From positions 34,658,001-34,722,000 of the forward strand of contig CM059426.1 in NCBI GenBank assembly GCA_030390025.1: a stretch of 64,000 nt of DNA, read 5' to 3'. Below are positions 22,200 to 45,900 of the stretch, one piece after another (position 1 is the stretch's first letter; each line of letters starts with the position of its first letter). This DNA is from Squalus acanthias. Taxonomy: Eukaryota. The notes below the pieces were generated by a model. The model had not been told where the DNA came from. It worked only from the letters and a program-made list of their open reading frames with translations, and searched no databases. The translations under genes were made by a program, and so were the position numbers.

Positions 22200-22420
22200 G
22201 GCGCTGTGGTGAAGGCTGCTTGTGGATGGAGGGAGGGAGGTAGGAGGGGAGGCAGATTGTACACAACCCGTCAATCTAACCTGATAACGGACATCCCGCC
22301 CCCCGTCGCCGCGATTGGACAAACCTCCCCTAGGTCTCTCGACCCAGGCGGGTGGGAGGGAGAACGGGAGCCTCTCATAGGCTCGGGTCTGCTGTCCATC
22401 AGAAATATCCCCCACCCTTA
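22200..22420 (+). promoter_or_regulatory. Putative ONECUT2 proximal promoter
   Basis: GC/CpG-rich patch 300-500 bp upstream of the ATG, with GC box CCCGCCCCCC (22295-22304) and inverted CCAAT (ATTGG 22314-22318). Confidence 0.55.
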
Positions 22421-22601
22421 GGTTAGCAATTTAGGTTGAACCAGGAGCAAACGCGTCTCGGGCTGGCTCCAGCTGTCTAAACAGTCGACGTAGGAGGAGG
22501 ACAGGCTCGGACATGGCGAGAAACAGCACTGGCCCGTCTGAGTGTTATCGGTGATCTTTGCAACCCGTGAGGCCTTAACATTTTTATCTTTCTTTCTCTT
22601 C

Positions 22602-22675
22602 ATATATATATGTGTGTGTGTGTGTATATATATATGTATGTGTGTATATATCATCTATACATGCATATATATATG
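22602..22675. repeat. Compound (TA)n/(TG)n microsatellite in the ONECUT2 5' leader
   Basis: ATATATATATGTGTGTGTGTGTGTATATATATATGTATGTGTGTATATA... Confidence 0.9.
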
Positions 22676-22738
22676 TAGCAAAAAAATCCCCTTGATTTAC
22701 CAAGCCAAAAGAAACAATTATAATCTTTAATGGACTGA

Positions 22739-23840
22739 ATGAACAACGCGTATAGATGTATAGCCAAAGAGGTATATGGCATGAACCCGGAGATTACAAT
22801 GGACAGCATTGGGAATTTGCATGGTGGAATAAGCCATGAGCAATCCACGGGCGATCTGATGAACAGTCACCAGCGGCAGGCAGTTTCAGCAGCTCATCGG
22901 GAACTGACGACCAGATCTGCAATGGTGTCCAGTATGGCTTCCATTCTGGATGGGACTGGGGACTACCGTCCGGAGCTCTCTATCCCTCTCCATCCGGCCA
23001 TGAGCATGTCCTGCGAGTCTCCACCTGGCATGGGCATGAGCAGCACCTACACCACACTAACGCCACTCCAGCCCCTGCCTCCCATCTCCACCGTCTCGGA
23101 TAAGTTCCACCACCCTCACCATCACCACCACCACCACCATCACCACCACCAGCGGCTGGCGGGCAACGTTAGCGGGAGCTTTACCCTGATGCGGGACGAA
23201 AGGGGCTTGCCTGCTGCCATGAACAATCTCTACAGCCCGTACCACAAGGACATGCCCGGGATGACTCAAAACCTCTCCCCTCTGTCCAGCAACCCTCTGG
23301 GAAACGGCCTGGGCTCCATCCACAACACCCATCAGGGCATCCAGGGCTACGGCTCCAACAGCCACGACAAGATGCTCAGCCCCAACTTCGAAGCTCACAC
23401 GGCTATGCTGGCCAGAGGGGACCAGCACCTGTCTCGGGGTCTTGGAGCCCCGTCGGCGGGCATGATGCCACACTTGAACGGCATGCATCACCACCACCAC
23501 GGTCACTCAAGTCATCATCAATCTCACGGGCCCGTGTTGGCTTCAAGCCGGGATCGGCCTCCCTCCTCCTCGGGCTCGCAGGCTAACAGCTCGGGCCAGC
23601 TGGAAGAGATCAATACCAAAGAAGTAGCACAAAGGATCACGGCGGAACTCAAACGCTACAGCATCCCACAGGCCATCTTCGCTCAGAGGGTGCTGTGCCG
23701 CTCACAGGGAACCCTCTCGGACCTTTTAAGGAACCCCAAACCTTGGAGTAAACTTAAATCGGGACGGGAGACCTTCAGGCGGATGTGGAAATGGCTTCAA
23801 GAGCCTGAGTTCCAGAGAATGTCAGCCTTAAGGCTCGCAG
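22739..23840 (+). CDS. ONECUT2: ONECUT2 coding exon 1 (TP box, poly-His, CUT domain)
   Basis: MNNAYRCIAKEVYGMNPEITMDS (ONECUT2-type N-terminus); TYTTLTPLQPLPPISTVSDKF; His tract; CUT domain EEINTKEVAQRITAELKRYSIPQAIFAQRVLCRSQGTLSDLLRNPKPWSKLKSGRETFRRMWKWLQEPEFQRM; donor GCAG|GTAAGC at 23840/23841; synteny with ST8SIA3. Confidence 0.96.
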
Positions 23841-24871
23841 GTAAGCCAGGGGATAATGCTCGCACGTTGAGATTGTGAAGAGGGAATTGGTAGTGATGGG
23901 GGGGGGGGGGGGGTAAACTCACAATAACGGTGCAAAACAACCAAAAATCATTGCAATTGTTATTTGCTGTGCTCTAATTCATCGACAAGAGAATATTGAA
24001 TAGAAACTGCCTTTCTTTGTGGTTAGATGCACCCGTGCCACTATTGCGGGGAGACCCGGGTATTTTCCTGTTTTTCCCCATTCCACCCACTGCAGAGCTC
24101 CTTCAGGGTTCTCCTTAGTCCAGTGCTCGCACAATAGCTCCATCAGAAGACAATTCAATATTCCCTCAATGAAACGACACACCCACAATCGTAACGTGGA
24201 ACGGCATCAACATCTGATTACCATTCAATTAATGTACCTTAAAAACCCATTTAAGAATGCAGTGTTCAAATGCTTCCCCACCCCCCCCCCCCTGCTTGAT
24301 GACCATCAACAAATTCGCAGTTGCACTATCCAGAATCCTACGTGCTGCCAGCCTGTTTAACCCATGTCAGAATCTGAACTGCTTTTTTTTGTCTCCTTTG
24401 TAGCACAGTAATTCCCTTTACTAACGTTAACTTCAGCCCCCTGCTAGAGATCGGTAAGGGCTAAAATCGGACTATTGTTGTCCGCCCTTGCTCATGCCAG
24501 CTCTGCATTGGACAGAAGCAATTCGACCGATTTCTGTTAAGTCTGCAGCACTCGGTTAGTTCTCGGTTTCTTCATCTACAACGCCGTTATTTTTTTTAAG
24601 CAGAATTCTGCCACCGCTTTTTGTTGTTCTGTTTAGTCCGTGTAATATGTGAAGCAAAGAGGAAACATATAAAATGTTTTACGCTTTTCACAGGGTTGTA
24701 GGGTGCCGAGTGACAAGCCTTGAGCTGTTTTGCGTGTATTTAAACGAATAGGTAAGACTAGTGCAGTGCTATAAGTAAGCGATCGTTTTGTTGTGGTGAA
24801 TCCCAACGATTGAGCACTGAACGAGCTTCGGTGGTTGGCAGTGTGATTGGGAAATCGGAGGAATTGCTTTT

Positions 24872-24888
24872 CCGCCCTCTAGCGGCCG
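24872..24888 (-). promoter_or_regulatory. CTCF-like motif
   Basis: Minus strand CGGCCGCTAGAGGGCGG resembles the core consensus CCASYAGRKGGCRS. Confidence 0.5.
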
Positions 24889-27800
24889 TGTTGGTCCCTG
24901 GAATCCGAGCTCATCCCTATTGTGTGTGTTTGGACGCATAGAATTTTATTTGTCTGCAATTGGGGACTATTTAATATAATGTAATTAACATTTCCATTTT
25001 TGAAAGACTGTTCAATGCATTGCTCTTAAATCTTCTTTAATACCCAGTAGGCGCGATTATGGAATTCTACCCTACAAGACAAATAAGTCAAAGTAATCTT
25101 TGATCATATTGGGAGAGCTCATTTTATTTCAATATATATGGAAAAATACTCTTGCATTCCCTGGCAAATATGTAACTGTTGAAATCCATACGGCGCCGAG
25201 AGCCATAATTTAACCTTCGCACCTCAAAAGGACAATGGAAGCAACATCTATTACAATGTCTAATTCGATTCGATATATTTATTTGACTACGTAACGTGAA
25301 CTCGCTCGTAAATATGTAGATTTGGAGGAGATAAATTTTTTTTTCGCGCGTTGGGGCAATCAGTGATACGTGGCTATATTTCAATGAATTATCAGTATGG
25401 ATTAGAGGAAAAATATAGCTCGGGTTTGTACGATATTTCGCATTTATTTTAACATGCAAATATAAACTTTGTGTTGTGTTTGCTTTAAGTGAAAATATCA
25501 GCACCATTTATTATATACAATGTTTTCATCACTGCTGTCATTATCCGCTTAAACAAATCAGGGACGATGTTGTCAACCAAGGCCATGTGCTGTAATTGCT
25601 GTAATTACTTCTTTCAATTAAACTTGGCTTTTCCCTGCATTTAGTGGAGAAACTCTATCCTTATACAGTGAGCCACAAAAAACGCGGTGCACATCGTGTA
25701 TGTAGTAACCGACTGCGTGTATTTCGCTAACATTCTTTTAATTTTTTTTCTCAACATTTATGCTTTCACTTATCACACAACTTCCAGATTGATTAGGAAA
25801 TCAAAATTCTTAAAATTATAAGCAATTTGATTGCTTTTCATTTCTGGGGTTGCAACAGATATGAAAAAAATGCAATTATTTTAAATCATGTCACCATGCC
25901 AGAAAATACAAAACATGTTGAAATATTTGAGATCACAGGTTGCCAAGTTCGCGGGTACAACCGTACTAGAATTAAATCTATTCAATCGATATAGGTGATG
26001 ATCAGAGTAGGCCTATCTGAATCGTGTTGTAGCCATTAGCTTCTGAATTCAGCTGTGCTGCTGACCTGAAAGAGGTGGAAGAGACATTTTGAAAACGGCC
26101 TTGAAATAGTCACCCCGACTATCCGTCTGTTTGTCTGTCCCTGTATCTATAACATTATGTTCATGACTGTATTTTCGGTAAAAGCTGACAGTAAATGATT
26201 GCTGATTCAACAAAATTCAAAACGCAAGCAAAGCCACACAAGCAGGCTGACAGGAAAAAAAATAATGATGTTATAATTTGGTGTTTGCATTTAATGCATG
26301 TTTTATTTGATTGCATTATTATCAATGAATTTCACCCCACATCCCTCAGGTAGGCGATCAATTCTGATTTGAATAATTAAACTGTTTATTGCCCAGCTGA
26401 TTTGGTATTTACAAACACAATGCACAAAAAAAAGAACAACCTTGGCAATAAAGTAAACATTGAAAAAATAATCTGTTTTATATAAATCAACCCATTGTGC
26501 GGGCTCTGTGCATTACCCCATCTCTGCTGCGGAAAATGACTTCAGAGATTCGTACCGCACGCGCATGATTTCGGAAGGTATATATTCTTACAACACCTTA
26601 TTAACTCCAGCTAAATACAGACCAGGAGATTTTTAAAAAGACCAGAAGGACAACAACATTTCATCCAACCACTTGAGGCGAGTACAGTGTGGGTTTTCTG
26701 GTGTGAACGATATTGCTAATTTTTGAAACATTTTATTTGTTAAAAGATTTTTTTTTTAAATGTGCCGTAGCTGGATTCTCTTTCTTTATTTTGTCTGAAG
26801 ATATAATATGCTTACTGGCAGTGCTTTGAAAAGAAGCCCAGAAGCCGCAGATATGAATTATTAATGGAAATCTCTGCATGACCGGTTGCTTGCTGCAACG
26901 TCACCCTTGCCTCGGTTTTAACCAGGCAAAATCTGGGGACTCATTCGCCGCTGGAGCTGATAGCCTTGTCAACCAGTATCTTTCTCTCTCGCGACGGCTC
27001 CATAAATGATTTATATTTAGAACGCCCACTTGGAGAGAATGATAAATAAAAAGGAATCGCTTCTGAGATGCAAGAGCGTCTGAATGCCGAATGCCATCTG
27101 TAAAACCAATAAATTCGCTGCCATACCGACACCAGCGTGTCTCTGTTAATCCCGGAGTTTTATTTCCAGTCACTCGGATCAGTTGTTAGTTGTTGTTGTT
27201 GCTGCAATTGGCAAATTAATAATTGAAACCCTCCCGCACCTGATGTTTGCCTCTGGCAGCCCCTTGTGTGAGAGAGTAACACCTTCCTAATGTTCATTAA
27301 TATAAGAGGATTCCTAGGAGCACTGAGGGCAAGGAAAGATATACTGGGGGGGGGGGGGGGGGGTGAGAGTGGAAGGAAAGAAATGAAACAGTGGCATTTA
27401 TTTTTATCAACAGTATTTAAATAATGTGGTTATGTCACTATATAAAAAAATCTGTGTATATGGACGTGGATCGATGAGGATAATCTTTAGAAGATTAAAA
27501 GGGCATTAATGCTGGCAACAATAACATAAACCTAAGGACCCGGTTAGACATTGATTTGGAACCTGATCCGACGTTGTTCCAGTAAAGCTGCCATAGTCTT
27601 CCCGGCATTGTCGTCCACATTATCTTCCCTTTGTCTCCTGGTAGTTTGAGTTCCCTCCTCGCTACCATTTTAAAGAGATTTAGTTCACAGCCCATGACAA
27701 TGATAGCTCACGTGTTTTTTTTAAACAGTAGTACTATATTTTATTATCGATTTTTTTTTCCTTTTTGCATTATGACCAAAGGTGTAACGGTGTTATTGTT

Positions 27801-30800
27801 CATTTTGCTGATGTGGGCAGATAACGATTTAAAGAGTTCCTCTAAAACATTCTTAAAGTAAGTTTGTCAGCATGTAACATACAAATGACACAGGAAATTG
27901 ACGTATTTTTTAAATGTCCTTGAATCAGGTCTTACTGATGAATGTTTTTCTTTTGCGAGACTATGTTGATCTTATTAAGAGCCGACAATGATACTGACAT
28001 GTGACCTCAGATACAGTATTCCACTTTAACTCAAATTAATTCATTAAAGTTAGAATCAATGCCCCAGTATTGTCCACAAACAAAAACCGCCAAGAGGATT
28101 ATTTACTGTGTTTCTGTCTGAGGTACTAATATATATATATATATATATAAGGACTTATCTAGGTGGAAAACTTAATACGCATGCCAGAGACCGCGTGTTA
28201 AGTGACAGGAACCCAATTAGCGCAGCAAATTGCAATTCAAAACGATTGGGCATCTGGAGTGTGTAAACCTCGCCGGCACGGCGTACGTTCGACGCTTCAG
28301 CACGGTGAAGGCTGCATTCCAACATCCTTGTTTAAATGCAGATTCAGACGTGTCTCTGATGTAAAAGACCGTCAGTTAAAAAAAACTTCTTGCGTTTAAG
28401 CATTAATCACACACTCTTCTGGGACCTCGAAATAGGTATCATTAGGAATCAACGGCAGTGTAGGAAGAGATTATGTTCCAGTCCGGGGGGGGGGTGGGCA
28501 GACGCTGCCCTCCCATCATCCTATAATACTGAATACAGTTACAGCTTCCAAGTGCTGTTGGATGCAATTACCATTTAAAATTAGTGCAGAAATCTCAGCG
28601 AAGGCTTGAGTACATCTTTCTGATTATATTCACAGATACAATAGAAATCGTCAATCTCCTGGCAATTGAATATTTTGCTGTTAGATTCAACATTTACAAT
28701 AGACGTTATTTTGACTTGAATAGTATTTGTTTTAGCAACCCACTTAATACGAACCTAATCGGACTTGATGGTTACAGATTCTATGTCTGTTAGTTGAGCT
28801 CAGATCGTAATTATAGTCCCCACACCGGTAGCCCCATGTTTTGGAAAATATAATCCATTGTTTCTTATTTATTATATTTGCAACTATTTTCTTTTTTTAA
28901 ACATAACTTTATGTCTAGCTCAAAATGTGTGAATGATTCCTATTTCGTTAGCCAGGCACTGCAGTAAATACTGGCGCTGAGTTCACTCTTTCAGGACAAA
29001 GCACTTTCTAATGGTTTGAAATTCTTCCTAACATTTAACATCATCATGTTCTGTACCAATATATTAATTTGTCACGAAATACAAATAATTGTATTGTATA
29101 TTCTTCGGGAAACCTCGACGAATCTGCAAAATATATCAATTTAAATGTTAAAGAGCAAAATGTCCATGGAGACCACGTTTGGAAAATTATTTATAAATTT
29201 TAAAATCATCTAACTAAAGCTCAATTCGCAAACATAAAATGTATCTGTTCAGATACGGAGCAGATTTTTTTTTTAACCAAAGATTATTTTCGCTGCAGTG
29301 TTTGGGGGTTACTTAAGTACGAAGAGTGGAGCGATGTCAAACGTTATACATGTGGGCTATACATTATATACAAATTTTAATAACATAATTGTATATCGAT
29401 ATTTATTGTTCTCCTGGGATCTTCCCTTCTCACAAGGACATGTAACACAATCTGAGAAAATAACCGAGTGCAATGTACATGGTACCGGCATTTTGCTCAT
29501 GTTTACGAATAGTTTCTTAACTCTGGTCCAATAGAACTCCATAGCTTGACTTACACACAATTGGTGTCCTCTCTCTTGTTTGTGCACAACGTCCTTTTAA
29601 GGATGTATAATTAAAATATAATCCTAAATAAAAATTTATATTAAAAAACAATACAGTAGAGTCCCAAGTTAGTGTAGCGTGGAGTGAAGCCCTTATCATT
29701 GCCGTGACGATCACAATCTTTGCACTGTAAGTGATTTAAGATATTGCGGCTCCCCTTGTAAAATTCAGTTCTATCCTTGACATTGAGAATTTCTTGATAA
29801 GGATCAGCTCTCGTGTTTATTCTGACAAATTTGACAATCTTTTCAGGGTTGATTTATGTCGCATACAAGTAAAAAAAAATGTTCTTTTCCCCCACGCGCC
29901 TGCTCATTCTGAATGTTGCTGTTTTCTACCGATTGCTTATTTCTTAATTTCGAATTTGCTAGCGAAACGTGTTTCTGAATATCAATCCTCCTTGGGTTTA
30001 TTGGACGGAGCGCCGCGTTCTTCTGCTTTTTTTTCCTTCTTTCCAAGAGCTCTATCACAAAGAACTTTGCTCTCTCAGACCGCGGGTCAGTGCAAACAAG
30101 CCTTTGTTTTATTTGTGGTGTTAGTGACTCGCTGACATCGATTTTCATTTTGTCACAACCCGAGTAAAAAACAATGGAGAAGTCGCCCAGAGAAGCTCCC
30201 CATTTGAGGTTTTATCAGCAACGACATTCATTTGATATAGGAATAGGGAAAACCTTCGCCATCGATCGCATTGATCCAGCCTTTCCCTTTAAGGAAACCG
30301 CACGTTTAAAGAAGCTCTTGCATAGATTTACTGTTTACCCGGATGCTGTTCTTTTTAATACTGTATTGTCATTCGATTTGTTATTGCTGGGAAATACAAG
30401 AACACCTAAAACAAGTGTTCTACAAGCAGGAGGCACAGGGCAGACAATGACAGAGGGGCGTCATTACCACAAGGTTTTTGAGGATAGGGCAATGCACCAA
30501 TATACGCACCGTCCTAATATGCTTTGCTGTTGAAGTTGTAGCATTCTTATTACGTTTAATCTTTATATTATTTTACTTTATATTAATTCTATATACATTG
30601 TAGATTATAGACATGTATTATGAGTCGTATACTGTGTATGTCAGTTGCAATCAATATGCATTATGGATAATATACAGCATTTATACAATACACAGTATAT
30701 ATAGTATAATCATTAAATAATAGGTTATTCAATCATATATCGTGCACACTGTGTGTATAGTACAGATTACAGGCAGGATAAACACATATATGCGCTATCC

Positions 30801-33021
30801 GTTAGTTAACATCCATACATTATGATGGAACATATAGTGTATGTGCACATTATAGTTTAATATTCTATATGTAACATACGTTGTATATATTACATATTTA
30901 CACACGCACATTTCTATTTGCTGTATATTTCAGTAAAAGAATAATGGAAACGCAGCATTTAGTTACTCACTTTTATTCATTTTAAACTTATCTTCATCAC
31001 TTTTTGTCGAGGGAAATCTAACAGGCGAATAATTTAGAACTTAAAGTGGCGATGCAGTCAGCAAAAATATCAGAGCTAAAACTGAACACTCACGTCTGTT
31101 AATTATGTCCGCAAACTTTACTATAATGCCAGACATTTTATGGGTCGCTTATAGCTATGTGTCTAGATCAAATATAGGTGCAATATATACATAAAGATGT
31201 ATTTAGATATTAGTTTTAAATGATTTCTGTTTACAAAATACATTCCAATAAAACGTGGATGAAGAACACGTGATCAAATACTTAATACTTACTATTTCTC
31301 TATTTAAACATTGTGGAAAAGTCATCCGACACAGTGAAAACCCTGTTTGTATTAATGACCATATACCGCTTGACGCTGGTTGCTTTAAAGTCAAGCAAGA
31401 TGAATGGAGTTTAATGTAAACACAACTGCTTTGTGTAAATTTCGTATCATCGGTTCGTAGGGTCCTGGTTTCTTTTTCTTTTGTTCCACTCATTTAAATA
31501 AGAAGGTGACGGCCATAAAGTTTCGTATCTGCCGCGTTAGTTTTACCTATCGGTAGGAAAAACCAACACAGGTTTGATTCGAATTACAAATACACGCAGT
31601 CCTTGAACATTAAAAAGAGCGAGTGAGAGAGAGAGAGAGAGAGAGGAAGGGGGCGTCTGTGATGATCCCAGCCTGCGCTGTTTAACTTCACAGGTAATTA
31701 GAAGCCATTATTGATTTTTTCATTTGTAATCCTAATGGGATGCGTGGTTTTGCAATCCCCGTCTTCTGAACTCACGTATGGTTAGATAGTTATGCAACAG
31801 CAAAACGACATTGAAACACCACCCCCCTATAATAGCAGGTTAGAATGAATGTACAAGATAACCGAGCAAGGTAGAACATATCTTGCAAATACATATACTG
31901 AAAAGACAAAGAGACGAAGAAGGGGAGAGAACTACAGAGATCTCATAGATAGAGACAGAAAGCGAGAGGACCGACGCAGATGAACAGGAAAGACAGACAT
32001 GGCCGTATCACAGACAGACTTAGAGAGCTAGGCAGAAATTGGACAAGACAAGTGGTCTGACGAAAAAAAGCGATGGCTGTGCCGCTCTTGCAGACCAAGG
32101 GCAGAGACATCCAGGTAGCGAACTGAAACCCTGTTCATTCACCGGTGGGATTTTTAAATGTTGAAGGATTGGTGTTTTGCACTTTGGATTAGAAGAAAAC
32201 GTGCGGGCGGACGGGATAAAAATAACAGGTACCGTGTGTTATTTGTAAGATTTTAAAAGTTAGCATATTAATTATACATACAAATCCTATTTTTATTACA
32301 ACAGTATTATCAGTGCATTTTGTAAGTCTTTATTTTCCTTGGGTCTTTGACGTGATGTTTTCACAAACGAACCTCATCAAACTGACAGAATTGGAACAAT
32401 TTTACGAACTAATAATGTCAAAATGGGAGGCGATCTCGTTGTTTAACCTGGAATGAATGTGGCTGCAGCAAAATGCTCTCAACAATCACATCTCAGGCTC
32501 GGGGTTACCACTCTACAGCAGTGTGCCTGAGCACAACCACACCGTCTAAAGAGGAGCGTACAACCGCTTCACCAGTTTTAGATAAATAAGGAGAATTAAA
32601 AAAAATGCCTAGAAATTAAAATCCCTAGCGATCATTTTTTGTAAATGCTGTGGCTTGTTGGAAGGTGTCAGACCGAATGTAATAGACGGGGCCTTGTTTT
32701 TGTTTACGATTAAAGCGTCAGTATTCAAGATCTGACATTCCCAACTGAACCGTCCACCGAAACAATCCCACTAAAGTAAACATTGCGTCTCTCTGGTCTA
32801 TTTCGAGAATAAACGGCAATTGTTTTTTTTAAATACAGAACATAAAAACAATTTAAGGAGCACTGTGCGAGTTAATGGGTTTATTAGTCTGCTACTGAGT
32901 TCAAAGGGCAAGGTTCAACGATGGTGCAGGCTAATTGATTCATTTGCAACATGTTTCTATGGTTGCAAATTGTTGGAGAAATTGCAGGAATTACTGCTTT
33001 CACACTGGCATATGCAGATTG

Positions 33022-33052
<31 letters not shown>

Positions 33053-36000
33053 GTCATTAATCCGGCGTCTGACGTCCGTGTTTTTAACCCTTTACTGTTG
33101 TTATTCTAGTGCACAGGGGTGGATTGTGCAGGTGCTAGGCCTAGTTAGGAAGCAAGATGAATTAATCGCCACATTAGTGGATGTAATTAGCGTTTAAACA
33201 GCGTCATCAGATTGACTTGATTGACTGTTGAGTCTGACTGAGAAATGTGTGCTAGCGCGCTACCCGTACTGGGGATGCGTGTTATACCACTGGCATGTGT
33301 TGATACTGGTTTACTGCAGTTGTACTCAGCGATTTGCGTAACTGCGTTACATGTATTATAAATCATTTTAAAACATATAATCCGGAATAGAGGATGGAAA
33401 TAAAGGATGGCAATAGCAGGATGCTGCATTTCCGAACACCGATTCTGAATTTGAGTGAAACTGTTCAAAATATGTAGAAAGCCAAAGTAAATAAACAAGT
33501 TCAGAATACATATGTAATGGAATAATACCAATGGTGAAAATGTTGCAGTATTTGACTTATAGACAACTTTACTCAAACACCTTCCAAACAAATAATGCAG
33601 GGAACAGGGTAATAGGAGGTTGTTTTTTTAAAAAAAAACGAGATCCTTGTTCTGGCTGTAGGATATGTTTAAAAGCGCCTGTCATTCCAACAGCAATTAG
33701 AGCCCAACAATTGCAAATATTTGTGTTTAATTTGTTCCGGTCGATTTAAAAGACATTTTCAAATATATTTTGCCATTCACATCGAATTAAATCACATTCT
33801 AGTTATAGGCTATGTCACATCAGTGCATCTTTCCGGGTTGGGATGGGAGGGGGAGGAGGTTCAATTGTAAAAATTTGCAAAATTACTTTCATGGAAATAA
33901 TACGTGACCTCCTCACATGATTTCCAACTGTTAGATATTAGTTATTATCTGATGGTCAGTCTCTGCGAATGTGTGCTGGGCATTGTGCCCGGCCGGGGTT
34001 CGTGTCTGTACTTGATAATGACTAGAGTTTCAACTGAGAAATAAAACGCAGCAAACTATTTTTAATGTCGTATTTAGCAATACGCTCGCGCGGAAGTCTG
34101 AGTAAAACTAAAACCAGGTCTTGTAAAATCTCATCCCGATACGCGAAGAGCTCGTGTCTGACAGCTAAAGCGTATAATTAATCGACTGACTGATTGATTA
34201 ACTGATTAATTCGATGGCGTAACGCGAGCTATCTTTTTATTAGCATTCGTGTTAATGGTGCTTGTTGACATGTCTAACGGTTTAGTTTGTTTTGGAAACT
34301 GGTTACATGCGTGTGGCTTTATTTTTCGTTTGGGTTCCGTTCTTTGGATTAGAGGAATGGCCATCGACAGCTACTTTATTGTGACACTGGCGGTCTTCCT
34401 GTGACGCAGTTGTTGGCATGCTTGTTTGCCACCACTGAGGTCAGCAATTTAATGGATGGATCCCGAAAGGGTCAGAGCCCAGTCCTGACATTAGTTTTCC
34501 CGGAGAGAATTGTCCCGGGTCAAGTCAAAATGTCCTGAGTTTTAAAAAAAAATAAAGCCTTGACATTTCCGGCTCTTTGAGAGCTTTGAAAAGATATTGC
34601 AAGCCCGCGACAGAATTAAGCACCGCTTCCCATTCCCCGCCTCGTCCCGTTGCATTTTTTTGTGAATTTTCCCTCTCTCCCGCAAACAAAACTGACATTC
34701 TGTTTGACACACTTTAAATTGCGAACTGCGGTGTTTGACCTTTGCAAAATCTACATTCATTGTAATAATTAGGGAGTGCAGAAATCGCCACGACTAGGAA
34801 ATCTTTCACAACTTTCTCCAATCATAGTCTCCAGACCCCAGCTTGAAGGATCTTTGGAACTATTTCATCTTTAATTCCACTCTTAAATATCTACTGGAAT
34901 GGATCTGTTTTTTTAAAAAAAAGTGTTCCTACCAATAAATTAAACATAATTGCCACGGCTAACCTGGCGTGAAGGCAGTGAGTAGCTTAGCAATAGAGAC
35001 CAGGCCGATCCGAGTCTCCATCCCTGATCTGTGCTGAGTTAGCTGTTTCTCAGCTGAGGCCGCAGTACTGATGAAGCTACGGTTGACTTCCGTGCCCTTG
35101 AGTTTGAAAAGAAAAAAAAAATTCGGCCAGAGTTGCCGCTCTTCATCACTACCCAGTGCCCCTTGCTGGAAGTGTGAATGTTGGGCAAGGACAGGATTGA
35201 GCACAGCAGTGATGCCACCCAAGGCTCAAACATGAAGATTGAGGTACCATGATATCATGACACTGTACCCAAGTCAGGAATCAATGCATTCAGAAGGAGG
35301 AAGAGAGCTTAAAAATGGCCGATAAAGGAGATTTTTTCTCTAACACACACACACACACACAATCACTGAGGACACAGAGCTGTGGTATTGTATTCGTTCC
35401 TGTCTGCTGTCCACGATAGTCAGCTTGTGCAATTCATACGGTGACAACTTGTGTTCATTAACGAGTTGGATAAATGTTGATAACTAGCACACATAACCTA
35501 CAGATAGCCCCTGCTTTCTGCTACTGTCAGTGCAGTTTAGTCTATCAGTGATGGCAGTAGCTGATTTCCGAGGCCCGTCCATGCTGAATAATAATTACCT
35601 CTAATATTTACTCACTGCCATCGGATCATGTTAGGAATAACTTATTGACCAATTGGAGTTACGCCATCGCCGAACTTTACTCGTGGAGTTGATCAATAAC
35701 CAAGAGCCGATAACCATCTTGATTAGCCGACCAGTGTTGACATTCCTAATGTATGGATACTGATACAATTCTTCTTTTAGTTAATCATATTCTTAAAAAA
35801 TAATATTGCCTAATTTGATGCAGCACAATGCATTTATATTCTTCATTGAAATTCAGTTCAGTCGAGGTTTGGGTAAAGTGATAACATTAGACGGGAGTCA
35901 ATGCTTATATAGGCCGCTCGACCGTATTTATGATTTTCATCTATATTATTCATGGCGATTAGTCATTCAAGTCCTGCTTTTACATTTTTCAGGTGCGGTT

Positions 36001-38270: not shown

Positions 38271-39290
38271 TTTGTGTTTGTCTTCATGGAAGAAGATGCA
38301 AAAAACTTCCCAGAAATAGTGGAGAACCAAGGGTCTAGCGAGAATGAGGAACTGAAAGAAATTAGTATTGGTAAAAAATAATTCCCCTGGACCTGGACCT
38401 GATGGCCTACATCCTAGGGATTTGAAAGAGGTGGCTATAGAGATAGTAGATGCATTGGTTGTCACTTTCCAAAATTCCATAGATTCTAGAACGATTCCTG
38501 CAGATTGGAAGGTAGCAAATGTAACCCCACTATTTAAGAAAGGAGGGAGAGAGAAAATAGGAAACTACAGACCAGTTAGCCTGACATCAGTAGTAGGGAA
38601 AATGCTAGAATCTATTATTAAGGACGTGGTAACAGGGCACTTAGAAAATAATAATAGGATTGGGCAGAGTCAGCATGGATTTGTGAAAGGGAAATCATGT
38701 TTGACGAATCTGTTAGAGTTTTTTGAGGTTGTAACTAGCAGAATAGATAAGGGGGAACCAGTGGATGTGGTGTATTTGGATTATCAGAAGGATATACTTG
38801 CCATAGAGGGAGTGCAACAAAGGCTTACCAGACTGATTCCTGGGATGGGGGGACTGTCCTATGAGGAGAGATATGCCTATATTCTCTAGAGTTTAGAAGA
38901 ATGAGAGGTGATCTCATTGAAACATACAAAATTCTTACAGGGCTTGACAGGGTAGATGCAGGGAGGATGTTTTCCCCTGGCTGGGGAATCTAGAACCAGG
39001 AGTCACAGTCTCAGAAGAAGGGGTCGGCCATTTAGGACTGAGATGAGGAGAGATTTCTTCACTCAGAGGGTGGTGAATCTTTGGAATTCTCTACCCCAGA
39101 GGGCTGTGGAAGCTCAGTCATTGAGTATATTCAAGACAGAGATCGATAGATTTTTTGGATATTAAGGGAATCAAGGGATATGGGGATAGGGAAGGAAAGT
39201 GGAGTTGAGGTAGAAGATCAGCCATGATCTTACTGAATGGCGGAGCAGGCTCGAGGGGCCAAATGGCCTACTCCTGCTCTTTTTCTTACA
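38271..39290 (+). mobile_element. Internally deleted CR1 LINE (its 5' part begins ~37536, before the MITE)
   Basis: ORF 38368-38889 PGPDGLHPR...WKVANVTPLFKKG..NYRPVSLTS...QHGFVKGKSCLTNLLEFF..VDVVYLD is fused directly to the C-terminal KDILAIEGVQ; 3' tail ends ~39290. Confidence 0.92.
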
Positions 39291-39613
39291 TACATACAAG
39301 ATGAAAATAAAATACACAGAGAAGGAACGTGAAGTAATTATTGCACAATTTTATTGGTCAGGTTTTGTTTTAGTGTAGGCGTGTTCTGTAATTAAACGGT
39401 TAGAACACTGCTCAGCAAAATTAACGGTTTGGGTTATTTCCACATTTATTGCCATCAGCTGATTTCCCCCCCCCCCCCCCCGTCCAGTAACTCGAAACCT
39501 CAGGTAAAACAAAGCGATATTTTAAGCAAGATTCGTTATTGTGCAGACGAGGATAAAGTCAGCCCGTTTCTATAAATCCTCAATATTATTATTTTTTTTC
39601 TTTTCCTTCCCAG

Positions 39614-39906
39614 CGTGCAAACGCAAAGAACAAGAACAGAACAAAGAGAAGAGCAATACACCAAAGAAGCCACGGCTAGTTTTCACTGACCTCCAACGCC
39701 GAACTCTTTTCGCCATTTTCAAGGAAAATAAGCGCCCTTCCAAGGAGATGCAGATCACAATCTCGCAACAGCTCGGTCTGGAGTTGACCACCGTCAGTAA
39801 TTTCTTTATGAACGCCCGGAGGCGAAGCTTGGACAAATGGCAGGACGAAGCCATGTCGAGCCCAGGCGCTTCATCGTCGACCTCAAGCACTTGTACCAAA
39901 GCATGA
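39614..39906 (+). CDS. ONECUT2: ONECUT2 coding exon 2 (homeodomain, stop)
   Basis: Acceptor TTTTCCTTCCCAG|CG; (A)CKRKEQE...KKPRLVFTDLQRRTLFAIFKENKRPSKEMQITISQQLGLELTTVSNFFMNARRRS (F48/M50 ONECUT homeodomain)...STCTKA-TGA. Spliced CDS 1102+293=1395 nt, 464 aa. Confidence 0.97.
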
Positions 39907-42900
39907 TTGAGGACAGTGCACCTGAACTGGGCACAACTCAACACCTTTTCTTTCTTTTATTTTTTGCTTTTTGAAGAGGCTGTTCAGTGGTGAGTGCATA
40001 AGCACAATCTTCATCAACACACTTTTTTTTTAAAAAAGGGATGGCACATATTTGAAAGTGTCTGGCATTTAAGATTTCTCCCTAAATTATTTGAGCCCTT
40101 GCTGTAAACTGACAACGAAGCTGAGAGTCTATTTGGTGAATTTTCCGACGTTATCAGGCAGGGCACATCGAGCTATGTTGCTGAGCAATATGTCTAGTGC
40201 TTTGTCTGAAGATAATTGTGACACAATAAGTTCAGTTGTGAGTTGCTTCAGTTGTCAGTTTCTGGCAGCTACACAATGATTTTTGATGCGGTGAAACTGG
40301 CACAGACACTGACAGTAAGTGACGTCCATTTTGAGCGTGTTTTTTTTTTAAAAAAAGGAACCTCAATAGAATTATTGGAGAACATTTGTACAATCATGCT
40401 ATCTCATCACTAACCAGGCTGTTTAAGAATGGGCTGCTAGTGGTGAGTAGGCAAGCACAAAATATCAAAGGCATTTCCGGAGATTTTCAGTCCTGCGTCC
40501 ACGCAACACGATACGAATCTTGAATGATGCTAGTAAACGTGCCCTCACCGCTAGAGCCACCCTTTGGGTGGAGCTGCTAGTGGTGGGAATGCAAGCACAA
40601 CCTTCAAGCACATTCCTCCCAATCACCAAATCCGCGACATTCTGTAATGTCCAATCATATGGTCTGTTTTGTTTTTGTTTCCAGAAGATATCAGGAGCAT
40701 TCAGTCGTGAAGGCAGCTGTTTGCTGCAGGAAGAGTGCATATTGTTTGTCTTATTAGTTGTAGATTACTATGCATTCATACACTTAGATTCTATTCTTGG
40801 GCAACACTGGTTTAGTACTGCAAACGCACTGAGTAGCCCGTGTAAAGGGGGCTGCCCATGGTGAGTGCAGAAGCACAAACATTAAATAGTTTTATTTTTC
40901 CTAAAACTAGGCATCAATACACCTTCTTCCTACATGTGCACATTCACCACTGAACGGGCCCTTTAAGAACACCATTGACGTGTTCAAAGGCAAGCCAAAG
41001 GCTTTAAAGACTCTCGTGAAGACACTTGATACTTTTTTTTCTATTTATTATTAAATCGAAACCAAAGAAACTTTTTTCTGCACCTAATTGTTCTGCAACA
41101 AACTTGTAAACAAAAGAAGCACGTCAGGAAACAACGTACGCACTGTGTTTCAATGGATGTCTTAGTCGTTTTGGGAAGCAGAGTTACGAAAGGGTTAACA
41201 AGCAAAGTAGCAACAACAAGGGAGCAATGCCACGGATCATTGCTGCTTCATTTGACGACACTCTCCGCCTCTTAAAGTTGAATATTGTCTTTAACGTGTG
41301 CCTATGCAGTTTTTGAGAAACGTTGTACAGAACAACAGAAAACCTCTTCCGCTTCAACCAAAGTCAGCTTCACAGAGACATGGATCTGTTTTGTAGTTTT
41401 TATGCATTACAGTTGAGTGCTGTTGGCACTATTGGCCTGTCTTTCAATGTTCGTCTTATTGAGAGAGGGAAATGCCCACTCAGTTTCACAATTTCCTCCT
41501 AATTAGCAATTCCAATGGAACAGGATACCAACAAATGGATCCAAATGGCTCCAAGCACAAGATGTTAGGGTGCAGATTAAACACCTCTACCAAAGATAGC
41601 AACCCATTCCCATAGCTCGGTAAAGGTAACTAAATATGGGAGTGTTTGCAAACTGTATGTTGCATTACATTAGTTACTAAGCATTACTGTGGTGTCTGAT
41701 TTTAGCCATATGCATTTAACAAGCATTCAACATAGCCAATGGTTCTTACTCAAGTCTCAAGTTGGATAATTTAAGTGAACTTTAACCTTTCATTAATAAT
41801 TTTGATGATTAGTCTATCATAAATTAATGCAGTTCATACAATATTAATATATTCCAAATTATTTTATTTGTATTGTATATCTAGTTTAAAATGTATAAAC
41901 TTTTTATTTTGAAATGTTGACATGATAATTATTTATTTTAAAAGGTCAGATTCAATTGATCCATAGATTTTAAAAAGTTCACTCTTCATCTTAAGCACAA
42001 AAGAGTCCATTGGTTATGTTTGTTGGTGAATTTAGTAAATGGTTACAGTCGCTAGTTTATCATTTACACTTTAACCTAAGTATCCTATGAGTTTCTTATT
42101 CATTGTGTGTCGATAGACGTTTAGCTCAGCATCTTGTGCATGGAGTCCCTGCGCACGTCCAAGACGAGTTCAACTTTCAAGAACATCAGGAAATCTACGA
42201 TAATTTTACAAAAAGAAGACAGTGCAGTATTGGTATACTGTAGTCCAATAGCTTTACCCAGGAATGTGGAAGCTTTTATCCTTAAACAAAGCTATATCCA
42301 AAGAAACCAAACCAATTGGACCAGCAAACTGAAGGTTGACCCTCACAGAGAGAATGACAGTACTTTCCCTGTGTGGCTCTTATTGTTTTGTATTAACTCA
42401 GATGTTAGAAATATGCCGTATTGTGGTAACAAGTTCAGACAGTTGACAGTGATATTTTCATTGCTAGTCACAATACCCATATGCCATGTAAGTGATTTAA
42501 TTAACAAAAGTTGATTTCTAAACAAGTTTGTAATTTTTAAAGTGCTTTTGACTAGTTTAGAAATCAAAAAGCTATATTAGCTTTATTATTATTATTTGTA
42601 TTATTTTGGGTATTTATTGTGAACTATATATTTAAACGGTGATTTTTCTCTTATTTATCAAATACTATAAATGTATTTAAAATGAAAGATGCAGTGCTTC
42701 AAATGGCCTCTAGTTATCACATTGTCTGCTTATTTTATAAAGCAGAAGAAGTTAATTCCTTTAACTTTGATTGATTTTCTTTTGTATTTTATTAGAACAA
42801 ATACAAATTACCGCTGGGAGTAAAATTGCAAGTGCATAAATATACATCTAACACAAGTCCAATTCTGCATCCTGTAAATTCATAGAAGAGAATTGGAGAT

Positions 42901-45900
42901 TTAGATTTTCTAAATTGTACTAATAGGCATCCTGTAATAGTTGAACATTATGCTTTCTGTGCAGAAACTACCTGAGCCAATATCTCAACATGTTTTCATT
43001 ATCATTATCTATTTTTGGATTTTAGCACCTTTAAGCACTGCATCTTTTATTCTCAATTTTCAATGCCAAAGAATTATCCCACTATAAGCACTGAAAGATA
43101 TCCCTTCAGTCTTATTAGTAATAACATGGACAAGCAATGATTTTATATGGAACAATACAGCATGTACTGATGGGAAAGTGAATACACAACAGGAAATACT
43201 TTAATGATCTTTCCACCATTGTTTAGCCCTGTGTCCAAATGGCTTTAGACAGTTTCTTTCGATTGTGAAGAAGTCTTTAGCGTTAGTGACAAGAGACAGA
43301 AAAAAAACCCTGAACTCGCTGCTTCCAGGTATGAACTATGTGTAAAAGCTCTTTCTACTTCTAGTGAGAACCAAAGAGGCTACCTCACTGAATTTTTCCA
43401 TTTGTAATTTTAATCGCGTCGATGATACCAAAGATACCAAAGATTTCTTTCTCTGCACGGTCTGCGTTTTGCTCCTGCTCATGTATAGACTGTCTCCTAA
43501 ATACAGCTGCAACTCAGATACCCCAAAGATCTAAATGGTGGTCTGCACTCATTCTAAATGTGTGTTTTTTCTGTGCTGTAAAAAGACAATTTCCTTATTA
43601 GAATCCATCATCAAGAGACCAAATGTACTATGTTCAGTAATTTTTGTACTTGTGGTCAACTATTTTAAAAAAAAGCTAATGTCACCAGCATTTCGCTGTA
43701 TTGTGTTTATTGTGATAAATATAGATCTAAAATATGCAGCAGTTTTGATTGGAGTATATTTAAAATAATTAATATTTCACTATATGGAGATGCTGTTTTA
43801 CAGAATTCTGTCCTTTCTAAACTAAAATGAGTAAAATCTACTAACAGGACCCAGGAAACACATAATTAAAGAGAATAATTGTTACCGCAATATAGGGGGT
43901 GTTAATATTCTCATATATTAGCAAGGTGAGTTGGTAAACATGGCAGATTCAGTTGCTATGGTGCCACTCAGATTGTTTCATCTAGCACTGTCTAACGCAC
44001 AGCTCTTTTCACTCTTCTAAATGCAAACATCGCCCTGTCTAAAGTTAGTTCAGTCATTATAATATGGGGCCTGATTTATAGTTAATTAGTACAATGTCAA
44101 TTTAAATCCTAAAAAATCTGAGATTGGTTGACCAGCAATTATTTAGGTCCTGTTAAAGGTCTTTAGATTGAAGAATACAAATTCTTGAAAAAAAATCTAG
44201 ATGAGAAAACAATAATACTCAGTGAATAAATCTCAAATTTCAGCAGGAAAAAAACCCCTGAAATGAATATTAAAAATTTCATATAGTGAACCAAATACCA
44301 CTGCCTAAAGTGAATCTTCCAGCAGTTCCTTATGATCTAATAGGGAGCTTTGAGTTAATTAAAGCACTTGTGCTTTGCTTGCTATTTTAAATAGCACTCT
44401 TCTCCCTATACTTATATAAAACCTGCTGGATCAATAATTACAGTGGTACTAATAGGTAATTCAAGTTTACTTCATAACAAGCTACGCAAGGTTTTTTTTA
44501 GTGTAATAAAATTTCTTTCAATCTATTCGTATAAAATGTACTCGCGCAAACTTTAGTTAATCAGTTTATTTTTGCAGCCCAGGGGGAGAAAAAAAAACTC
44601 TGCCATGTAATGTTACCAAAGTCATGACATTTTTACTGATATTTAGAGAAGAAGGCTGGAAAGATTAATTTGCATTCAGTTGAATTTATATGTACTCAGA
44701 TTATGTCAAACCAAACCAGTGCCTAGATTGTCTGATGTTTTAGGTCTTTGGTAGCTGTAATATGCCCAAATCATATCCCATTTATGAATGCACAGAAAAA
44801 ATAAATAAATACACATCCTGAATCAGTGGCCACCATTACCAAAATACCTGTACTTAAAAAAAAACCTAAAATCTAGATGCACGCTTTAGTTGCAAAGTGT
44901 GATAAACCACGGGACGAGTGCCTTGCTTGAACCAAAGCGGTGTTTCTTTCCAGTTTCTAGACCTCTGTGCATTTTTTTATTCCTGTGAATACCTCAGCTT
45001 CGAAAAGGCCACCAATTTTTTATTGCTGGTGAGCCGCTATACTGTGGTGCTTTGCAATGCAACCATGCAAAGAACTAAACAAAGATACCAAAGTTTTCTC
45101 TCTATCTCAATCTCTATCTTCTCTTTCTCTTAAAGATACCAAAGCTTTAAAAAAAAAGAATTGATTGAGTAGGTTGGCAGCGCAGACCGTGCATTCCTTA
45201 CCGAATTTTCTCAGATATACCTCATAGATAATAGTGTCTAGGGTGATGTTATTATAGCATATGTAATAAATTATTCACTCGTTTTTTGGTAACTGTAACT
45301 ATGATATAAAAAAAAGCTTTATACGTTTTAAGTTGTGATTTTTGTAATAGGTGACAGGTGCGCTTATGGAAGGATTGTAAATGTTTCATGGAATTTGGGG
45401 AAGTTGCAGAACGAGCCCAAAGTTTACAGTTTTCATATTCTGAAGAAACAATCCGTTGTTTTTTTTCCTTTGTGTGTGTGTATGTGTGTTTAAAATGCGT
45501 TTATTTCCACATTGTCCTACATAGACTTATTGACTAATTGTTATGTGTTAAAAGTGTAGTGTTAAAATTAGCAACTGCCAAACAGTGCTATAATTTTATG
45601 CATGAGGTTGTAAAAATTTAGCAAAGGTGATGCATTGTGATTATCGAGAGTAATATTTTTTAATTTAAGAAAATAGATTTTTTTTTCTTTTTTAAAATAG
45701 ATTTTATTTATGCATGAGAGCCTGTTATTTGTTAGACATTGTGGAACAGTTGTGTATATATTGGACTGTGAAAGCAAACGCAGTTGAATTGAATACACTG
45801 GAAAAGTTGGCGCACAGGGATTGGGATGGGTTGATGTGTCAATTTAAAAACAAATCAAAAATAGGACTTAGCGTAAACAAAAAGTCAAATCCTGCACACA

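Follow-up and report, generated by a model that had tools for sequence, protein, structure and literature searches.

The window, that is, the whole 64,000-nucleotide (64-kb) stretch of DNA that we analysed, contains in its positive strand the first coding exon and the last exon of ONECUT2, the latter continuing into a 3'UTR with an array of miR-218 sites (Table 1). The first-pass annotation had named the gene ONECUT2, and its domains, its neighbour and its residues agree on this: Pfam searches revealed a CUT domain and a homeodomain, a sialyltransferase exon lies upstream, and the homeodomain core presents ONECUT2 residues at all four positions that distinguish ONECUT2 from HNF6 chains. The top bit score of the homeodomain-region protein was to HNF6 and not to ONECUT2, a result attributable to the linker. 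Contigs of runs X3 and X10 splice the end of the first exon to 39611/39615. An extra exon within the intron has a CAG/GT donor at 32228/32229 and a 5' start that the contig does not define, and the frame leading into the homeodomain exon holds a stop codon and no ATG. The CpG profile gives no promoter mark at this exon because the whole intron is CpG-rich.

The array had been placed in the proximal 3'UTR of the mRNA, and the transcript data bear this out: an organism F contig spans from the coding exon to past 42100, and an overlapping contig joins exon 1. Contigs from organisms B, C and D each cover single copies. The organisms compared are close relatives, about 90-96% alike. The sequencing runs were taken as RNA by guess and by their splice joints, and the own-species run gave zero UTR contigs. 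Runs X9 and X12 cover only places beyond 41590, X1 contributes one contig at the exon start, and X20 yielded only two short off-target pieces; missing cover was not counted as absence.

Table 1 Features of the ONECUT2 locus, with positions in the 64-kb window
Feature	Position	Strand	Description
ONECUT2 first coding exon (CUT domain)	22739..23840	+	ORF, Pfam CUT; donor after 23840
Extra intronic exon	32085..32228	+	Spliced to last exon; one contig, one run (X1)
ONECUT2 last exon, coding part (homeodomain)	39615..39906	+	Stop codon 39904-39906
Copy 1	39978..40007	+	Predicted helix strand 39978-39999 and miR-218 8mer 40000-40007
Mirror arm A1	40397..40423	+	5' side of predicted copy 2 hairpin
Copy 2	40432..40460	+	Predicted helix strand and 8mer 40453-40460
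Mirror arm A2	40539..40562	+	5' side of predicted copy 3 hairpin; strong copy 2 partner too
Copy 3	40572..40600	+	Predicted helix strand and 8mer 40593-40600, then 7mer-m8 at 40606
Mirror arm A5 (weaker)	40696..40720	+	Alternative copy 4 partner (predicted)
Mirror arm A3	40818..40839	+	5' side of predicted copy 4 hairpin
Copy 4	40850..40878	+	Predicted helix strand and 8mer 40871-40878
Mirror arm A4	40935..40960	+	Inverted repeat; predicted to close long-range helix with copy 1, enclosing the whole array
Distal miR-218 8mer without module	41553..41560	+	Predicted buried, long-range helix with 42127-42146
Distal miR-218 8mer without module	41993..42000	+	Immediately 5' of predicted helix arm

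Four copies of a miR-218 module and their mirror arms

All four copies reported by the first-pass annotation were recovered at the same coordinates, where they make up the top direct-repeat family of positions 38500-43500 (n = 4, 28 nt, 64-89% to the reference), with spacings of 453, 140 and 278 between successive copies. Each consists of a miR-218 8mer preceded by a shared 20-nt block, which comprises a GCTG leader and TGGTGAG. The identity of the sites as miR-218 8mers was confirmed with the mature miR-218 sequence, read from two mir-218 loci of the same genome, and the additional sites at 40606 (7mer-m8), 41553 and 41993 (both 8mers) are likewise present. Six of the seven plus-strand miR-218 8mers in the 64-kb window fall between 40000 and 42000. 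A helix 41527/42003 linking both distal 8mers was considered and rejected: the predicted fold prefers other partners and buries the 41553 site.

The pattern TGGTGRG-N5-AAGCACAA, which was selected after the copies had been seen, gave 48 matches in the 3.7-Gb genome against 3 for the reversed control, and four of the 48 correspond to the 0.9-kb ONECUT2 cluster. The leader was absent from the 11 that were inspected among the other 44. Searched without the seed, leader plus TGGTGRG had 9,712 genome-wide matches, many of them in repeats. The region 39960-41150 is single-copy in the genome, matching only itself in a search that skips very common words, which speaks against a transposon-derived repeat.

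The sequence between the copies had been described as unrelated, which is incorrect: reverse-complement arms of the module are located there. The order along the array is copy 1, A1 and copy 2, A2 and copy 3, A3 and copy 4, and finally A4. When the four blocks were compared with 12,795 windows from the plus strand of the 64-kb stretch, A4 ranked first as a complement, A2 second and A3 eighth, with A1 and A5 outside the best 25 of the 12,795. In the predicted fold, copy 1 pairs with A4 over 944 nt and copies 2-4 close local hairpins; predicted pair probabilities are 0.95-1.0 at 39982-39993 of the copy 1/A4 helix and in the cores of copies 1-3, those of the copy 2/A1 core being 0.98.

Predicted stability was above that of shuffled controls, most strongly for the copy 1/A4 helix and the copy 2 hairpin. 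The copy 1/A4 duplex (-34.7 kcal/mol) was equalled by 0 of 200 shuffled queries and was the strongest of 1,093 22-mer duplexes tested in 39907-44300. The local hairpins, in windows picked after the fold was seen, had z values of -3.73 for copy 2 (0/200 shuffles), -2.45 for copy 3 (4/200) and -2.34 for copy 4 (3/200). In the long-range test, shuffled queries did as well in 41 of 200 cases for copy 3 and 12 of 200 for copy 4, so that neither is clearly above shuffled. Copy 2 pairs better with A2 than with its cognate A1 (-30.1 against -22.3 kcal/mol), and the copy 4/A5 duplex has -27.3 kcal/mol. Rfam gave zero matches at gathering score within the 64-kb window, i.e., no described RNA family. Drosha-type hairpins were discarded, the stems of ~24-26 bp being too short as judged by eye; pri-miRNA stems measure roughly 35 bp. 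Structure alone offers no explanation for one sequence being common to four helices.

The seed matches and the blocks differ in predicted accessibility: opening 8 nt would cost 1.8-2.6 kcal/mol at the seed matches (14th-24th percentile) and 6.9-17.0 kcal/mol at the blocks (75th-100th percentile), with a per-base unpaired probability at the seeds of only 0.44-0.67. The predicted opening costs of the blocks of copies 1-4 are 18.6, 10.8, 9.3 and 7.9 kcal/mol, copy 4 being the least buried, and the corresponding gains from pairing with the miR-218 3' half are 7.0, 8.4, 8.6 and 9.6 kcal/mol. The blocks are GC-rich and the seeds A-rich, and composition alone would give them different accessibility.

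Conservation of the array and its potential pairing with miR-218

Six substitutions are located in copies and arms among those listed in the four organisms, none of them in TGGTGRG or in a seed match. Three affect predicted unpaired positions (40418, and 40437 twice), that at 40450 sits at a stem end, and C40955T in A4 of organism B turns a G-C pair into G-U, which keeps the pair. The remaining one, G40836T in A3 of organism B, breaks one pair and weakens the predicted copy 4 hairpin from -25.8 to -18.7 kcal/mol; the organism C changes cost the copy 2 hairpin 2.6 kcal/mol of its predicted stability. None of the six listed substitutions is a compensatory base-pair change, and the helices are therefore predicted and not proven. 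Among the listed differences the seed match is unchanged in copy 1 (organisms D and F), copy 2 (organism C) and copy 4 (organism B), and zero substitutions are listed in the whole of copy 1 in D and F or of copy 4 in B; copy 3 has no cross-species row among those listed. Divergence was 6/207 in copies plus arms versus 51/795 elsewhere, which is lower but not significant (p 0.06). Organism F is represented by 40 of its 206 differences, readable up to 40437, and its zone 40365-40437 presumes that they follow the order of place; differences less than 30 nt from contig ends, 6 in organism C that may fall in A1 or A2 and 2 in organism B, stand outside the list.

At the last exons of three other onecut genes (~10 kb each), which contain 1-4 miR-218 7/8mer matches or none, no TGGTGRG block was found before miR-218 matches. 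These paralogues, being without the block, give no support to an origin that predates the onecut duplications. A search of metagenome contigs for vertebrate orthologues gave 62 loci (<=83% identity), which look invertebrate by protein; in none of them is a seed match preceded by TGGT at a distance of 5-11 nt. Mammals presumably keep a similar closing helix and a block after A4, an assumption given no weight here.

The first-pass annotation had also proposed pairing of the blocks with the 3' half of miR-218, and all four copies can indeed pair nt 12-13 and nt 15-18/19 at a constant +2 offset. The longest Watson-Crick 3' runs of copies 1-4 are 4, 4, 4 and 6, copy 4 having the best match (nt 15-20), and nt 14 is mismatched in four of four. 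Judged by energy and with the four copies taken as one event, 3' complementarity as good arose in 458 of 3000 shuffles; the common register was equally good in 99 of 3000, and the copy 4 match by itself in 6 of 1000. None of the four copies presents 3'-supplementary pairing in the sense of contiguous Watson-Crick pairs centred on nt 13-16 (PMC8940178).

As had been observed before, the GCTG leader lies outside the miR-218 pairing; of the explanations then offered, a miR-15/16 co-site did not stand in copy 2. The leader is best accounted for as helix strand, because each leader plus TGGTGAG block forms a predicted strand of a helix. With the miR-15/16 family seed taken from that annotation and from the miR-15a line in the Li et al. 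data, a 7mer-A1 match occurs in two of the four copies, and C40437T removes the one in copy 2 in organisms C and F. The substitution affects a predicted unpaired position and leaves the central stem of copy 2 unweakened.

A probable folded scaffold for miR-218 sites and competing readings

The factors concerned, miR-218 and the ONECUT proteins, both act in neurons. On balance, we regard the array as probably four miR-218 8mers on a folded helical scaffold that work by ordinary multi-site repression, the 3'-pairing block being kept shut. Each 20-nt block would form a helix with a mirror-image arm, and the copy 1/A4 helix would enclose the entire array across 944 nt. The scaffold would offer its seed matches to miR-218-loaded Argonaute while the blocks stay closed. 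The limited complementarity to miR-218 nt 12-20 would be latent and count only once a helix opens, most easily in copy 4, and the unit may have arisen by an old local duplication plus inversion and been kept by selection.

Mammalian ONECUT2 is regulated by miR-218 according to Simion et al. 2010, cited in PMC7961372, who dealt with the same microRNA and target (ONECUT2/OC-2, together with HNF-6) and with several canonical 3'UTR sites; as cited there, their account is without a shared block, mirror arms or a long-range closing helix. That repression would be seed-driven is suggested by likeness to the miR-34a design of Kosek et al. 2023 (PMC10639062), an engineered open seed with its 3' site closed off by an upstream hairpin, which gave no gain over seed-only repression. 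The architecture of their structure 3 is the same as that predicted for copies 2-4, but it is a single artificial site, whereas ONECUT2 has four natural copies, interchangeable arms and a predicted 944-nt helix. The array would be a natural four-fold example of an open-seed/locked-3'-site design otherwise found only as an engineered construct.

The array could instead be a latent switch, in which Argonaute-miR-218 lands on the open seed, which serves it as a toehold, and the mirror arm is driven off by the 3' half of the microRNA or by a helicase; this we consider unlikely, and just as doubtful is the outcome it would have, namely 3'-supplemented sites and refolding of the 1-kb domain, with a dose threshold or exposed elements. 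The constant offset and the nt 12-13 and 15-18/19 pairing of all four copies speak for it, as do the shuffling results for the common register and for copy 4 alone, and copy 4, which has the least buried block, departs towards better pairing (nt 15-20). The arms are interchangeable, and therefore several folds exist. In the p27 Pumilio/miR-221-222 hairpin switch a microRNA competes with an intramolecular stem. MIMOSAS likewise sets microRNAs against intramolecular stems, which they are reported to open in pre-mRNA (PMC13092977); these two systems affect the splicing of pre-mRNA or conceal the seed, whereas here the seed is predicted open and the 3' block hidden. Against the switch, block opening costs more than pairing returns in copies 1-3, the 3' match is not significant by energy as one event, and the same design gave only slight competition in Kosek et al. 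2023 (PMC10639062). With no greater confidence, the first kilobase of the 3'UTR might be a conserved miR-218-operated switch of four caged sites, each combining a free seed as toehold with an inbuilt arm that imitates the 3' half of miR-218; above a threshold of miR-218 the helices would unzip cooperatively and the domain closed by the 944-nt helix would refold. A non-coding isoform from an intronic exon may carry this device too.

Less likely still, the array could be a relic of old duplication and inversion, with selection on the seed matches only and helices that are neutral or bound, independently of miR-218, by a double-stranded-RNA-binding protein of the Staufen/ADAR type. The weak conservation signal and the one pair-breaking change would fit, as would the strong long-range helices found without the module elsewhere in the UTR (41547/42127 and 42679/43031) and the genome-wide abundance of leader plus TGGTGRG, much of it from repeats; yet block, offset and seed were kept in four copies whose spacers have nothing in common, the region is single-copy, and the copies covered show zero core changes. 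We know of no Staufen-bound duplexes that recur as units around the seed match of a single microRNA. Staufen hiCLIP duplexes (PMC10164587) likewise include a ~20-bp helix across ~1 kb of 3'UTR, but they are protein-bound, whereas the ONECUT2 helix is a predicted one.

That the copies hold miR-218 as a sponge, or destroy it by ZSWIM8-dependent decay (TDMD), through sites of seed, loop and 3' helix had been suggested by the first-pass annotation and appears distinctly improbable. The suggestion is unsupported because the 3' runs amount to only 4-6 pairs, every copy has a mismatch at nt 14, the predicted fold shuts the block away in intramolecular helices and the 3' match is marginal. The geometry does resemble that of the miR-218 triggers in TRIM9 and SSR1 (PMC8653786), which likewise combine a seed match and a central loop with pairing across nt 15-18; these triggers have 8-9 consecutive pairs to the microRNA end, whereas the present 4-6 are interrupted by the nt 14 mismatch and lie in a block predicted to be closed. 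Set against the TDMD features of Li et al. 2021 (PMC8653786), the copies have a paired seed and a central bulge of <7 nt, but their runs towards the 3' end of the microRNA reach 4-6 consecutive pairs, whereas >8 are required there. The 671 CLASH candidates in Table S1 of that study, from human and mouse data, do not include ONECUT2 and give only SSR1 and TRIM9 for miR-218-5p. On the favourable side, TDMD work can be divided among several sites (PMC13041716), one viral trigger makes do with six 3' pairs (PMC8940178), the human UTR has been proposed as a ceRNA (PMC10356556), and the extra exon could yield a non-coding transcript carrying the array. Complementarity alone can give wrong TDMD or sponge calls when one strand of an intramolecular stem supplies the 3' match.

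Three of the four copies read G/GTGAGT, the 5' splice-site donor consensus. A U1 snRNP motif serving 3'UTR splicing or suppression of a proximal poly(A) signal is nevertheless the least credible reading: the G that mismatches miR-218 nt 14 would be its +3 purine and the first of two ATTAAA (40881 and 41050) lies 2 nt after copy 4, but copy 3 is without the consensus and keeps its miR-218 pairing, zero joints use these donors in the contigs of organisms B, C, D and F (contigs drop rare forms), one contig reads through the whole set of copies, and the predicted fold buries the motif. A transcript ending at the ATTAAA of 40881 would be without arm A4.

The folded scaffold that we favour has published context in the human ONECUT2 UTR. 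Steadman et al. 2023 (PMC10356556) describe it as a ceRNA that is structured and acts on miR-9; it is reported to resist microRNA silencing, folding being suggested to let microRNAs bind without strong silencing. The main text of that study mentions miR-218 zero times, and we found no defined helices in it. Candidate helices are now named, which permits exact compensatory-mutation tests. Our literature search found no published miR-218 site array or defined ONECUT2-UTR helices, which supplements of hiCLIP or bioRxiv studies (e.g., the 2026 RLMHelix) may list. PMC12728496 concerns m1A in ONECUT2, and RNA structure is mentioned once in its available text.

Host gene and the repeated module

A repeat search ranked the proposed four-copy family as the top repeat of the region, and all four strings were recovered. 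Each ~29-nt copy combines a GCTG leader, a TGGTGRG block and a miR-218 8mer; 6 of the 7 plus-strand miR-218 8mers in the window lie within 40000-42000. The block-plus-seed pattern had 48 matches in the 3.7 Gb genome, 4 of them in this array, and the 39960-41150 interval was single-copy and had no match in an Rfam scan. The pattern, devoid of the leader, was also seen in a dispersed repeat family and likewise in one 30-nt tandem array of the source genome, G000 (family and array jointly, e.g., loci L016, L022, L027 and L010-L015).

Coordinates of the module copies, mirror arms and host-gene exons
Feature	Position	Strand	Basis
Copy 1	39978-40007	+	string present
Copy 2	40432-40460	+	string present
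Copy 3	40572-40600	+	string present
Copy 4	40850-40878	+	string present
Arm A1 (copy 2)	40397-40423		reverse complement
Arm A2 (copy 3)	40539-40562		reverse complement
Arm A3 (copy 4)	40818-40839		reverse complement
Arm A4 (copy 1)	40935-40960		reverse complement
Arm A5 (copy 4, alternative)	40696-40720		reverse complement
CUT exon, host gene	22739-23840	+	domain content
Homeodomain exon, host gene	coding end at 39906	+	domain content

The host gene lies downstream of a sialyltransferase exon. Its homeodomain core has the ONECUT2 residues at all four positions distinguishing ONECUT2 from HNF6 chains, and the HNF6 residues are found in a separate locus (L004) of the same genome; the overall protein score was slightly higher against HNF6 than against ONECUT2. 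The module was absent from three paralogous onecut UTRs of this genome, in which two mir-218 hairpins supply a mature miR-218 equal to the human sequence printed in the excerpt of Li et al. 2021 (PMC8653786). In the related organism F, a single contig spans the coding exon, all four copies and on beyond 42100, and a second, overlapping contig joins exon 1; the array therefore belongs to the mRNA tail of a relative, as its assignment to the 3'UTR had anticipated. A fourth, more divergent onecut gene (L006/L009, contig C24) showed 66% over the last exon, an open frame of 280 aa and no miR-218 7/8mer within the 10 kb read. Together with genome size and protein divergence, the presence of four onecut genes suggests a cartilaginous fish.

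Mirror arms and predicted fold

The spacers, previously described as unrelated sequence, contain reverse-complement arms whose reverse complements can be aligned to the copies. Copy 1 forms an inverted repeat (I3) with 40941-40969, 944 nt apart; in the predicted fold of 39950-41000 this helix closes the domain, and copies 2, 3 and 4 are the 3' strands of local hairpins (z-scores -3.7, -2.5 and -2.3; 0, 4 and 3 of 200 shuffles as good). Predicted core-pair probability was 0.95-1.0 in copies 1-3. The first-pass annotation rightly left the leader unexplained by miR-218 pairing: the predicted fold pairs it in every copy, firmly in copy 4, where the TGGTGAG part is only partly paired. When 12,795 plus-strand windows were ranked as complements of the four blocks (the ~20 nt 5' of each seed match), A4 came 1st, A2 2nd and A3 8th, with A1 and A5 outside the top 25. 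Shuffled queries equalled the best UTR partner of copies 1-4 in 0, 4, 41 and 12 of 200 cases. Arms are partly interchangeable, copy 2 forming a better duplex with A2 than with the adjacent A1.

Of the contigs from eight sequencing runs compared with the window, those of four related organisms (B, C, D and F) covered parts of the array; the differences listed, 40 of 206 for the organism F contig, bear on copies 1, 2 and 4. In completely listed zones, substitutions numbered 3/125 in copies, 3/82 in arms and 51/795 elsewhere (copies plus arms versus elsewhere, p 0.06, counts being non-independent among related organisms). Among the listed differences, none fell in TGGTGRG or the seed matches. C40437T, in organisms C and F, removes the copy 2 7mer-A1 of the suggested miR-15/16 co-site, which argues against that proposal for copy 2; alone it improves the predicted hairpin from -25.9 to -28.2, and with the other organism C changes gives -23.3. 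C40955T retains its pair as G-U, and G40836T breaks one pair of the copy 4 hairpin (-25.8 to -18.7). Given that the listed differences in the arms and in copies 1, 2 and 4, with 40 of 206 rows for organism F, held no compensatory change, and that the search reached no distant vertebrate, we regard the fold as a predicted rather than a demonstrably conserved structure.

Other strong long-range helices were predicted at 41547-41566/42127-42146, which would bury the 8mer at 41553 completely, 41727-41750/42000-42027 and 42679/43031; the 41480-42180 fold had z -3.9 (20 shuffles). Variant poly(A) signals occur at 40881-40886, 2 nt past copy 4 and before A4, and at 41050-41055; AATAAA first appears at 44225. 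For an mRNA ending near 40905, the prediction is that the copies take other arms as partners and remain largely closed.

Pairing to miR-218 and alternative readings

The claimed 3' pairing stood in part: miR-218 nt 15-18 and 12-13 are pairable in all four copies at offset +2 (nt 19 as G-U or A-U, nt 14 mismatched throughout), reaching nt 20 in copy 4, but chance did as well in 458 of 3000 shuffles of nt 11-21 by energy, and in 99 of 3000 by common-register count, the related copies being tested as one event. Singly, 201, 225, 68 and 6 of 1000 shuffles equalled copies 1-4. We thus take the match as no more than suggestive overall, copy 4 being the one clear case.

In naked-RNA energies, predicted opening costs were 1.8-2.6 kcal/mol for the seed match versus 6.9-17.0 for the block; making the 14 nt upstream of the seed accessible costs a further 18.6, 10.8, 9.3 and 7.9 in copies 1-4, against gains from 3' pairing of 7.0, 8.4, 8.6 and 9.6. 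We lean towards a folded scaffold that would present four open 8mer seeds to miR-218, which would repress ONECUT2 in the ordinary, seed-based way, the 3' block probably being kept shut and latent. The same design with miR-34a gave seed-only repression and slight competition, according to the excerpt of Kosek et al. 2023 (PMC10639062). A switch in the RNA opened by miR-218 itself seems rather unlikely, and it is less likely again that the array is a relic of duplication whose helices are neutral or bound by protein.

Open sponge or TDMD sites, the design first proposed, are improbable: consecutive 3' pairs number 4, 4, 4 and 6, whereas Li et al. 2021 (PMC8653786) require more than 8 and describe 8-9 for the miR-218 triggers TRIM9 and SSR1; their 671 candidates do not include ONECUT2. 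In favour, the excerpts cited report that several sites can cooperate in TDMD (PMC13041716), that six pairs suffice in one viral trigger (PMC8940178) and that the human ONECUT2 UTR was proposed as a ceRNA (PMC10356556). That the block is a U1 motif is most improbable, since the donor consensus of three copies is spliced in no contig of B, C, D or F and copy 3 lacks it yet still pairs with miR-218.

The miR-218/ONECUT2 target pair is already known (cited in PMC7961372). For the repeated block, its arms and the closing helix we found no prior description in literature searches, though supplements and subscription papers may hold some.

Other features of the locus

The 41016-41224 interval, a short way past A4, differs little in organisms B and D and includes a miR-9-type site at 41061. 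ACCAAAG, which we take to be the miR-9 seed match, occurs nine times in the UTR (41061-45144), among its most enriched 7-mers, and twice in the last coding exon. This abundance agrees with the excerpt of PMC10356556, which counts 13 conserved miR-9 sites in human ONECUT2. Across 21000-36000, an interval that takes in the first exon completely and the greater part of the intron, CpG observed/expected was 0.55-1.06, suggestive of an extensive unmethylated domain. One contig of sequencing run X1, a run that contains 94% of the window's words, splices an intronic exon (32085-32228, donor CAG|GT) to the last exon at 39615. Because this intronic exon contains a stop but lacks an ATG in the homeodomain-exon frame, it would act as a poison cassette exon or, alternatively, as a non-coding first exon, in which case its transcript would carry the UTR minus the CUT domain.
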